64,000 nt of DNA from a virus: positions 93,671 through 157,670 of IMG/VR virus record IMGVR_UViG_3300045988_131075; one strand, 5' to 3'. The translations under genes were made by a program, and so were the position numbers. Positions 57,770 to 57,858 of this stretch are shown piece after piece (the first letter of the stretch is position 1; each line of letters starts with the position of its first letter). Below the pieces are notes generated by a model that worked only from the letters and a program-made list of their open reading frames with translations, had not been told where the DNA came from and did not search any database.

Positions 57770-57858
57770 CAGCCCCGCTGGGATTTGAACCCAGAACGAC
57801 TCCTTCAAAGGGAAAACGGTTTTAGAGACCGCCGTGTTAACCGTTACACTACGGGGCA
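57770..57858 (-). tRNA. Amber suppressor tRNA (anticodon CUA), type II with 21-nt variable arm
   Basis: TGCCCCG-TA-GTGTAACGGTTAACAC-G-GCGGT-CUCUAAA-ACCGT-(21 nt)-CTGGGTTCAAATCCCAG-CGGGGCT-G. Anticodon stem GCGGT/ACCGT; loop CUCUAAA gives U33 and C34-U35-A36. CCA not encoded. Confidence 0.65.

Follow-up and report, generated by a model that had tools for sequence, protein, structure and literature searches.

A suppressor tRNA with a putative glutamine anticodon replica and a ribozyme-like 3′ flank in a code-15 human-gut phage

The stretch of DNA analyzed here, hereafter the window, comprises 64,000 nucleotides of a virus (positions 93,671 to 157,670 of IMG/VR record IMGVR_UViG_3300045988_131075) and is part of a human-gut phage of approximately 160-200 kb that uses genetic code 15, in which the amber triplet TAG is a sense codon. 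Our subject is a tRNA gene with anticodon CUA at 57770-57858 on the minus strand, the strand on which all of the window's features given below are found; we strongly infer that it decodes UAG with its CUA arm. The joint explanation that fits the evidence best, and which we consider very probable, is that of a code-15 gut phage whose CUA tRNA is charged with Gln, carries a pseudo-anticodon arm, and is transcribed as one precursor with a ribozyme attached. Recoding, suppressor tRNA, and ribozyme are each of known kinds; the part added here is a conserved replica of the Gln or Trp anticodon.

The meaning of TAG in the window

All genes of the window lie on the minus strand, and delimiting them by TAA and TGA yields 64 open reading frames (ORFs), 24 of which contain in-frame TAG (approximately 60 codons in total, or 3.7 per 1000 codons); a few of these, near N-termini, probably precede the real start codon. 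CAA and CAG occur 291 and 120 times in this set of ORFs. Termination is by TAA in 53 genes and by TGA in 11, never by TAG, and the TAG closest to the 3′-end of a gene (codon 485 of 55091-56584) is CAG or CAA in relatives. ORFs of at least 100 amino acid residues cover 71% of the window under standard termination, a share that rises to 85% once TAG is translated; as dropping any stop lengthens ORFs at 33% GC, such statistics alone are not decisive, and domain continuity and homolog columns were used instead.

The original prediction, made from the letters alone, held that many genes are continuous only when TAG is translated, and this is borne out. Pfam domains span the TAG codons in one frame and at full model length, including Phage_lysozyme2 (2-140/140), GIY-YIG (2-78/78), Radical_SAM with SPASM, and NAGPA. 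Frameshifts are thereby excluded, and TAG as sense restores full-length, domain-complete proteins. In related contigs of 88-98% identity, recovered from separate human-gut metagenomes, TAG is conserved at 108 positions, which means that these codons are neither sequencing errors nor decay; database pipelines chose table 15 independently for these relatives. Complete domains and this conservation refute a reading of these genes as pseudogenes, frameshifted genes, or assembly errors.

The TAG counts of the original prediction were also right, at eight for the endolysin (10547-11848; Phage_lysozyme2 and Amidase_2, identified by Pfam) and three for a radical SAM/SPASM peptide maturase (14006-15298), which by the names of its homologs belongs to the family with CXXX-repeat targets; GIY-YIG (five to six codons), HNH, tail-fiber-like, and NAGPA plus SPOR genes contain TAG as well. 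The GIY-YIG homing-endonuclease-like gene at 57863-58618 ends 4 nt upstream of the tRNA and has five, one within the motif YIG-TAG-S; a second GIY-YIG protein (1314-2327) has four and reads YVGQA where its paralog reads YIG-TAG-S. Seven occur in a Listeria-Bacteroides repeat (Flg_new) protein (55091-56584), two of them being CAG or CAA in close relatives, three in a tail-fiber-like protein (Mtd_N; 53437-54684), and two in the protein with NAGPA and SPOR domains (60595-61452). The HNH/Zn-module proteins at 61791-62387, which contains WLCQCDCG, and 37855-38406, with YWTC-TAG-CKCG, have five and two, respectively.

Approximately one-third of the genes use TAG as a sense codon, and these are lysis, tail-fiber-like, peptide-maturase, and homing-endonuclease genes. 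It is avoided in genes of replication, repair, and host takeover, and no in-frame TAG is present in the genes for DNA ligase, GyrA/B, DUF5662, SPFH, RNA ligase, methylase, phosphoesterases, RlaP, NADAR, and the vault-protein-like product. The pattern published for recoded phages is the same, with early genes in the standard code and late and lysis genes recoded.

The residue inserted at TAG was deduced from 16 sites in three genes, using database homologs of less than 70% identity and pairwise BLAST columns, which replaced a global MAFFT alignment of the endolysin matches that had misaligned the lysozyme domain. Gln occupies the TAG column in 112 of 114 endolysin homologs (site 146) and in 117 of 117 GIY-YIG homologs (YIG-x-S). 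At 6 of the 16 sites it is seen more often than any other residue, and it accounts for 27.5% of all residues aligned to TAG, compared with a background of 3.4% (8.1-fold); Lys, Glu, and Arg, the usual replacements of Gln, come next. Ser, at 4.3% against a background of 6.3% (0.7-fold), is not enriched and is absent at both invariant sites, and Tyr stands at 0.1-fold; a Tyr reading of TAG was likewise rejected. A protein with Gln at all eight endolysin TAG sites (P0001) was dropped as independent support, being the table-15 translation of a relative.

Exchange among the 88-98% identical contigs points the same way. The non-TAG codons opposite TAG in the window are CAA (five), CAG (four), and six others, and the window's codons opposite the relatives' TAGs are CAA (13), CAG (one), and eight others; no Ser codon lies opposite TAG in either direction. 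As the change from TAG to CAA needs two base substitutions, the swap looks like synonymous exchange. Inside the window, the paralogous Zn modules of one protein (33358-34101) match TAG with Gln (YWIC-TAG-CECG and YWICQCDCG), as do YIG-TAG-S and YVGQA, and the motifs singled out by the original prediction are present as described. On the evidence of homolog columns and codon exchange, TAG appears to mean Gln, and the proposed code-15 reassignment of gut-phage type holds.

The suppressor tRNA and its extra arm

ARAGORN identifies a 90-nt tRNA with anticodon CTA at 57769-57858, and the Rfam tRNA model (RF00005) matches exactly 57770-57858 over all of its positions (1-71/71) with 56.1 bits against a gathering threshold of 29; the molecule is 89 or 90 nt long depending on the caller. 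The tRNA of the original prediction is in this way accepted by a covariance model, and its features were read correctly: a decoding anticodon arm at 57816-57832 with stem GCGGU/ACCGU and loop CUCUAAA, in which C34, U35, and A36 are found at 57825-57823, and a variable region of 21 nt. The acceptor end has an unpaired U1·U72, G2:C71, C3:G70, and the discriminator G73 (57770); the D-arm (GUGU/ACAC) has an 8-nt loop and G10:C25. CCA is not encoded, which makes the suppressor unique among the window's 15 tRNAs, and the next base, C57769, could act as C74. No second CUA tRNA was found in the window by ARAGORN.

The label tRNA-Pyl, given by ARAGORN, follows from the anticodon alone and was rejected. 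A tRNA-Pyl has a 3-nt variable loop, a 6-bp anticodon stem, a small D-loop, and accompanying pyl genes; here the variable region is 21 nt, the anticodon stem 5 bp, and the D-loop 8 nt, and approximately 40 window ORFs that were scanned include no pyl-like gene.

Neither whole-sequence nor body-only similarity to 570 phage tRNAs allowed the isotype to be assigned; only specific identity positions were informative. An open 1:72 pair, G2:C71, G73, G10, U35, and G36 belong to the identity set of glutaminyl-tRNA synthetase (GlnRS), and mutation of its determinants lowers activity by up to 10^5-fold (review PMC9976931). By the E. coli paradigm the suppressor possesses the open 1:72, G2:C71, G73, G10, and U35 and lacks two elements, G3:C70, replaced by C3:G70, and G36, which is A36 in the decoding arm since a CUA anticodon necessarily destroys it. 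The triplet U-U-G followed by A37 is found in the extra arm only and not in the decoding arm.

This extra arm, at 57800-57814 in the variable region, was recognized by family comparison and RNAalifold. Its stem of 3-4 bp (U45-C48/G56-G59; UUCC/GGAG) has U·G as the outermost pair and closes a 7-nt loop, C-U-U-U-G-A-A (57810-57804), in which the replica of a Gln anticodon, UUG, is situated at 57808-57806. Five to six unpaired nucleotides (UCGUU) separate it from the T stem, and the variable region as a whole reads UU-UCC[CUUUGAA]GGA-GUCGUU. By sequence the loop C-U-UUG-A-A appears to be a replica of the tRNA-Gln anticodon loop.

The original prediction regarded the molecule as type II and Ser-like, and for that reason ill-suited to Gln insertion; this part of it does not stand. 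Class II tRNAs of the Ser type have G1-C72 and G2-C71, an arm stem of approximately 5-7 bp ending 1-2 nt before the T stem, and a Ser-type D-arm, and the window's own tRNA-Ser genes possess G1-C72, such a D-arm, and long variable stems abutting the T stem. The suppressor has U1·U72, an arm stem of 3-4 bp with five unpaired nucleotides on its 3′ side, a differing D-arm, and Gln-type acceptor features. Judged by these positions, its architecture agrees with Gln rather than contradicting it, and the seeming paradox of a Ser-like tRNA inserting Gln dissolves.

Long suppressor tRNAs were surveyed in IMG/VR with a pattern that fixed the anticodon loop, the T loop, and the spacing and left all else free, which brought the set to 48 unique long CUA tRNAs and yielded, from the same scan, 25 unique long UCA (opal) tRNAs. 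The 18-nt decoding arm of the window's tRNA is found identically in CUA tRNAs of 32 IMG/VR contigs, six of which (158-197 kb) are syntenic relatives. A hairpin with the loop N-U-(C/U)-U-G-A-N, that is, U33, the anticodon CUG or UUG, and A37 of tRNA-Gln, is present in 36 of the 48 long CUA tRNAs; the replica triplet is UUG in the window and CUG in most others, both being Gln anticodons. The motif YUGA occurs in the variable region of the same 36/48, of 1/25 long UCA tRNAs, and of 6/121 Ser, Leu, and Tyr tRNAs. Conversely UCCAA, from the anticodon loop (CCA) of tRNA-Trp, is carried by 15/25 long UCA tRNAs, 0/48 long CUA tRNAs, and 0/121 Ser, Leu, and Tyr tRNAs. The long CUA tRNAs without the replica are mostly genuine Ser-, Leu-, or Tyr-like molecules, and none of 27 ordinary tRNA-Gln genes from the same loci has a long variable region.

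In the CUA family the replica takes up positions 34-37 of a 7-nt loop closed by three pairs that form in 97%, 97%, and 75% of cases, in that register only, and the stem variants covary (GCC/GGC, UCC/GGA, CCA/UGG, GCG/CGC, UGC/GCA, CGCC/GGCG, CACGG/CCGUG). RNAalifold applied to 23 sequences independently returned a five-helix fold that includes the extra hairpin, each of whose three pairs shows compensatory changes. In the UCA family the replica is central in the loop, typically CUCCAAA or GUCCAAA, of a 4-5 bp hairpin, and the tRNAs that carry it are built mostly on tRNA-Trp-like acceptor stems (AGGGGC...GCCCCU-G). The Gln replica stands on 22 different acceptor stems, mostly tRNA-Gln-like (U or A at position 1, 1:72 open or weak, G2:C71, in many cases G3:C70, and in most G73), and the Trp replica on 14. 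The triplet thus tracks the amino acid that each reassigned stop is known to receive in phages, Gln for UAG and Trp for UGA, and does so consistently across many backbones. In a cell-free system with E. coli enzymes, Gln was inserted by 28 of 29 phage tRNA-CUA and Trp by 13 of 13 tRNA-UCA (PMC12636597).

A consistent anticodon replica was not seen in other long tRNAs of usually short isotypes (Thr, Cys, Gly, Ile, Trp), and the claim of a replica arm is limited to CUA and UCA tRNAs. In one 96-nt tRNA (L011, 7718-7813), the anticodon of which is UAU (Ile), the sequence C-G-A-U-A-A lies in the loop of an extra arm of 5 bp and resembles the anticodon loop of tRNA-Ile(GAU); being a single case, it may be a coincidence. 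Genuine Ser/Leu-like CUA tRNAs, with G1-C72, a Ser/Leu-type D-arm, and a long variable stem, occur in IMG/VR loci L109, L131, L134, L108, L150, and L037, and phages that carry such tRNAs may suppress TAG with Ser or Leu. Short CUA tRNAs (73-75 nt) and long ones with the replica arm (89-97 nt) lie adjacent to one another in loci L139, L083, L051, L143, L041, and L091, which hints at a division of labor or a recent duplication.

A putative ribozyme at the tRNA 3′-end

The sequence immediately downstream of the suppressor (57714-57768), of which the original prediction made no mention, can be folded as a minimal ribozyme of the hepatitis delta virus (HDV)-like, theta type, fused to the tRNA 3′-end. 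This putative self-cleaving element, recognized with Rfam and a descriptor of our own, consists of P1 (GGUGCU/AGCACU, with G1·U at the cleavage site and G1 at 57768), P2 (AAACAAA/UUUGUUU), P3 (ACC/GGU), L3 (UCCUCGC), P1.1 (GG:CC), and a vestigial P4; the presumed catalytic C is the first position of J4/2 (57726). The nested double pseudoknot of P1, P1.1, P2, and P3 can be fully drawn on the sequence in the Rfam alignment, and cleavage is predicted to occur between C57769 and G57768. The Rfam family HDV-F-prausnitzii matches end to end with 26.1 bits (E=0.0043 in a 261-nt search), which is below the gathering threshold of 44 since the P4 of the model is missing, as in minimal ribozymes; the shortfall nevertheless counts against the assignment. 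The fold descriptor, which was written after the sequence had been seen, matched once in the window (both strands) and never in 300 shuffles, and the ribozyme is identical in relatives.

Theta ribozymes are, by definition, those that cleave within ±5 nt of where a tRNA ends on its 3′ side (Kienbeck et al. 2024, PMC10879173), and here G1 is 57768 and the discriminator 57770. According to the same study, their cleavage sites abut the 3′-ends of phage tRNAs, CCA is encoded by just 4.5% of the tRNAs concerned, tRNA-Sup is the neighbor of 20% of the ribozymes, code 15 is the predicted code of 96% of the phages that have such a pair, and theta-ribozyme phages are enriched in RNA ligases of the DRB0094 family. 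The window resembles these systems in having the predicted cleavage site within 1 nt of the tRNA end, no CCA, code 15, and a DRB0094-like ligase; it differs in its Rfam score below gathering. Neither the ribozyme nor the tRNA of the window was found in the accessible part of the supplementary text of PMC10879173. At two other suppressor tRNAs, those of L087 and L107, apparent HDV-like sequences on the 3′ side were not detected by Rfam at E≤1 in a 34-kb search.

A TAG-free cluster of candidate RNA-end-processing genes lies at 18716-28541. It includes an RNA ligase (24668-26044; RNA_ligase with the PHA02142 oligonucleotide-binding (OB) fold and a partial match to the DRB0094 family), which may be a partner in processing or repairing tRNA ends, an RlaP nucleotidyltransferase (27735-28541), three metallophosphoesterases (18716-19276, 20540-21259, and 26759-27541), and a NADAR protein (22350-22793). 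The ligase-like protein, RlaP, and the metallophosphoesterases could conceivably heal the 2′,3′-cyclic phosphate left by cleavage.

Charging of the suppressor, rival readings, and neighboring features

A possible course of events is as follows. The precursor tRNA, fused to the theta-type ribozyme, would cleave itself after C74 and release an end of ...G73-C74 with a 2′,3′-cyclic phosphate, which would be healed and then extended to CCA before charging; ribozyme and end healing might serve as a timing step in the switch from the standard code to code 15. Host GlnRS would charge the suppressor through the open 1:72, G2:C71, G73, G10, C34, and U35, as expected from established identity rules, and the extra arm would make up for the G36-containing anticodon signal that the decoding arm lacks, presenting it to the synthetase or some other factor specific for Gln. 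Two separate arms would in that case take charge of identity and of decoding, with the CUA arm reading UAG in late genes. The arms might exchange stacking on the D stem, which would be harmless as either conformer inserts Gln; alternatively, the extra arm might be read by a different factor. Comparative evidence suggests that the extra arm may restore synthetase recognition. More broadly, phage stop suppressors may form a natural and widespread class with an additional pseudo-anticodon arm that shows the sense anticodon of the inserted amino acid (CUG or UUG in suppressors of UAG, CCA in those of UGA), by which host GlnRS and TrpRS would still recognize the tRNA while the other arm reads the stop, a proposal that is plausible and that we rate somewhat short of an even chance.

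Several points weigh against the joint explanation, in addition to the score of the ribozyme. The suppressor has C3:G70 in place of the G3:C70 of the E. coli Gln identity set. A core arm of 3-4 bp cannot reach the anticodon-binding domain while the acceptor end of the same tRNA occupies the active site, barring exchange of stacking or some other readout. Other phages have short CUA suppressors that lack the arm, which is consequently not indispensable for Gln charging. GlnRS in the host is presumed, with the GluRS/GatCAB route as an alternative. The Fisher p of approximately 2e-9 obtained for each motif contrast (YUGA and UCCAA) overstates the evidence, as the unique tRNAs counted share phylogeny. 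Lastly, some database homologs may themselves be table-15 translations, which would inflate the Gln counts at TAG columns in near relatives; those above 70% identity were excluded.

It is possible, if somewhat doubtful, that the extra arm is real and conserved and yet not a handle for the synthetase, being instead a relic of duplication, a stabilizer of the tRNA, or the site of another factor such as an enzyme that modifies Gln or Trp loops, the phage OB-fold RNA ligase, or an anticodon nuclease for which it acts as a decoy. The arm-less short suppressors, some in tandem with a long one, and the geometry, which argues against simple recognition in cis, both speak for this, as does the presence in the window of an RNA ligase with an OB-fold N-terminal module; furthermore, the loops of the two arms are one base apart (CUCUAAA/CUCUGAA and CUUCAAA/CUCCAAA), which fits an origin by duplication. 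A relic, however, would hardly be expected to keep N-U-YUG-A-N and U-CCA-A intact over 22 and 14 acceptor stems while its stem covaries, nor would the triplet track exactly the amino acid assigned to the stop. GlnRS and TrpRS, moreover, rely heavily on the anticodon, which is a major identity element for both (PMC9976931).

We think it unlikely that the UUG/CUG hairpin is the true or an alternative decoding arm, reading CAA and CAG or, by a switch in stacking, UAG as well. The 5-6 unpaired nucleotides on its 3′ side do resemble the normal variable loop that follows an anticodon arm, the UCA family has a full 5-bp stem, and insertion of the same amino acid either way would make the ambiguity harmless; yet ARAGORN and Rfam put the CUA arm at the canonical place, 1 nt after the D stem, the UUG arm of the window's tRNA has only 3-4 bp, and TAG is demonstrably decoded in a window in which no other CUA tRNA was found. 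Reading of TAG as Ser, through SerRS and a long variable arm as in supD, has in its favor the 21-nt variable region, G73, and the existence of genuine tRNA-Ser-like CUA tRNAs in other viral contigs (L109, L131), but it is very unlikely given the lack of enrichment of Ser at TAG columns and its absence from the two invariant sites, the lack of any Ser codon replacing TAG in relatives, and an arm of 3-4 bp with long unpaired flanks on a molecule with U·U instead of G-C at 1:72 and a D-arm unlike that of the window's tRNA-Ser. That the TAG-containing genes are pseudogenes, frameshifts, or assembly errors, and the CUA tRNA incidental, is a formal possibility only and exceedingly improbable: the interruptions are TAG and never TAA or TGA, the frame is unchanged and the domains are complete, TAG persists at its 108 positions in relatives from independent metagenomes, and database pipelines selected table 15.

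Charging of the suppressor with Gln has partial precedents. Like E. coli supE and the amber suppressors mischarged by GlnRS, the window's tRNA combines CUA, with C34 and U35, with a weak or open 1:72, G2:C71, G73, and G10. The su+3 tRNA-Tyr, a long-arm tRNA, accepts Gln once 1:72 is opened or position 73 is changed. Unlike the classical suppressors, the window's tRNA has C3:G70 instead of G3:C70, and none of them is known to possess an extra arm with a UUG or CUG replica. With the bacterial type II tRNAs (Ser, Leu, Tyr) and supD it shares a length of approximately 90 nt and a hairpin between the anticodon and T arms, but it differs in its 3-4 bp stem, its 7-nt anticodon-like loop, the 5-6 unpaired nucleotides, the lack of G1-C72 and of a Ser/Leu D-arm, and the inserted residue, which is not Ser. 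The nearest precedent for the extra arm is engineered: a replica of the anticodon arm placed in the V-arm of an amber suppressor has been found to aid synthetase recognition, with modest effects, in work with allo-tRNA chassis and a HisRS to which an additional anticodon-binding domain had been joined (Mukai 2020, PMC7590224); the arm described here is natural and widespread and would need to work with an unmodified host enzyme. A full-text literature search, for which most subscription journals were out of reach, found no description of a natural pseudo-anticodon arm.

Code-15 phages with tRNA-Sup(CUA) have been described (Borges et al., bioRxiv 10.1101/2021.08.26.457843; Peters et al. 2022, PMC9523058; phAss-1, PMC10607447), and they share with the window low GC, TAG concentrated in lysis, structural, and homing genes, early genes compatible with the standard code, a phage-encoded tRNA-CUA, TAG as Gln, and no dedicated synthetase nearby; the accessible parts of these accounts do not describe an extra arm of the tRNA. 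No release factor or synthetase was found within the 64-kb window. A megablast of 24 kb of the window against INPHARED gave no match, and tblastn with GyrA returned only uncultured fecal phages at approximately 40% identity.

The recoded-phage literature itself asks how a host synthetase dependent on the anticodon can efficiently load a CUA tRNA, and the conserved Gln replica on UAG suppressors and Trp replica on UGA suppressors provide a concrete hypothesis for charging that can be tested by mutation. If true, it would be a natural case of tRNA identity kept apart from decoding, a principle known until now from engineering alone (PMC7590224); it could also serve as a model in designing efficient or orthogonal suppressor tRNAs and would yield a sequence signature predicting the amino acid that a phage suppressor inserts. 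There are consequences for annotation as well: such tRNAs receive the labels "Pyl," "SeC," or "Ser-like" on the basis of their anticodon or length, and gene calls in such phages come out fragmented without table 15.

Other RNAs were noted in the window and in related loci. A RAGATH-33 RNA (40148-40276; 126.8 bits against a gathering threshold of 120.4) lies in the tRNA-rich region. At 38932-39071 is a 140-nt tRNA-like gene (Rfam tRNA, 59.9 bits) with encoded CCA and an insertion of approximately 65 nt in the anticodon loop, which holds a T-arm-like hairpin (AUGAGUUCAAAUCUCAU); ARAGORN did not call it. ARAGORN also missed a tRNA at 61520-61594 (Rfam, 46 bits) whose loop CCUCUAA gives UCU (Arg) with an unusual C33, and relatives have tRNA-Arg(UCU) at this position. 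In related tRNA-rich phage loci a ROOL RNA (295.8 bits) and phage transfer-messenger RNAs were found (L087 7483-8058; L032, L034, L036, L007, and L023).

Among the protein-coding genes, the radical SAM maturase at 14006-15298 adjoins a Cys-rich CXXX-repeat protein (15630-16334), and both contain in-frame TAG; by sequence this looks like a phage-borne pair of ribosomally synthesized, post-translationally modified peptide and maturase. A protein with the Major Vault Protein shoulder and vault repeats (30743-33241) adjoins one with DUF2828/DUF7788 (34190-35716), and an SPFH protein is also present (17030-18415). The ratios of CAG to CAA in these three genes are 26:2, 10:0, and 19:2, against 120 CAG and 291 CAA in the window overall, a bias which suggests their recent horizontal acquisition.

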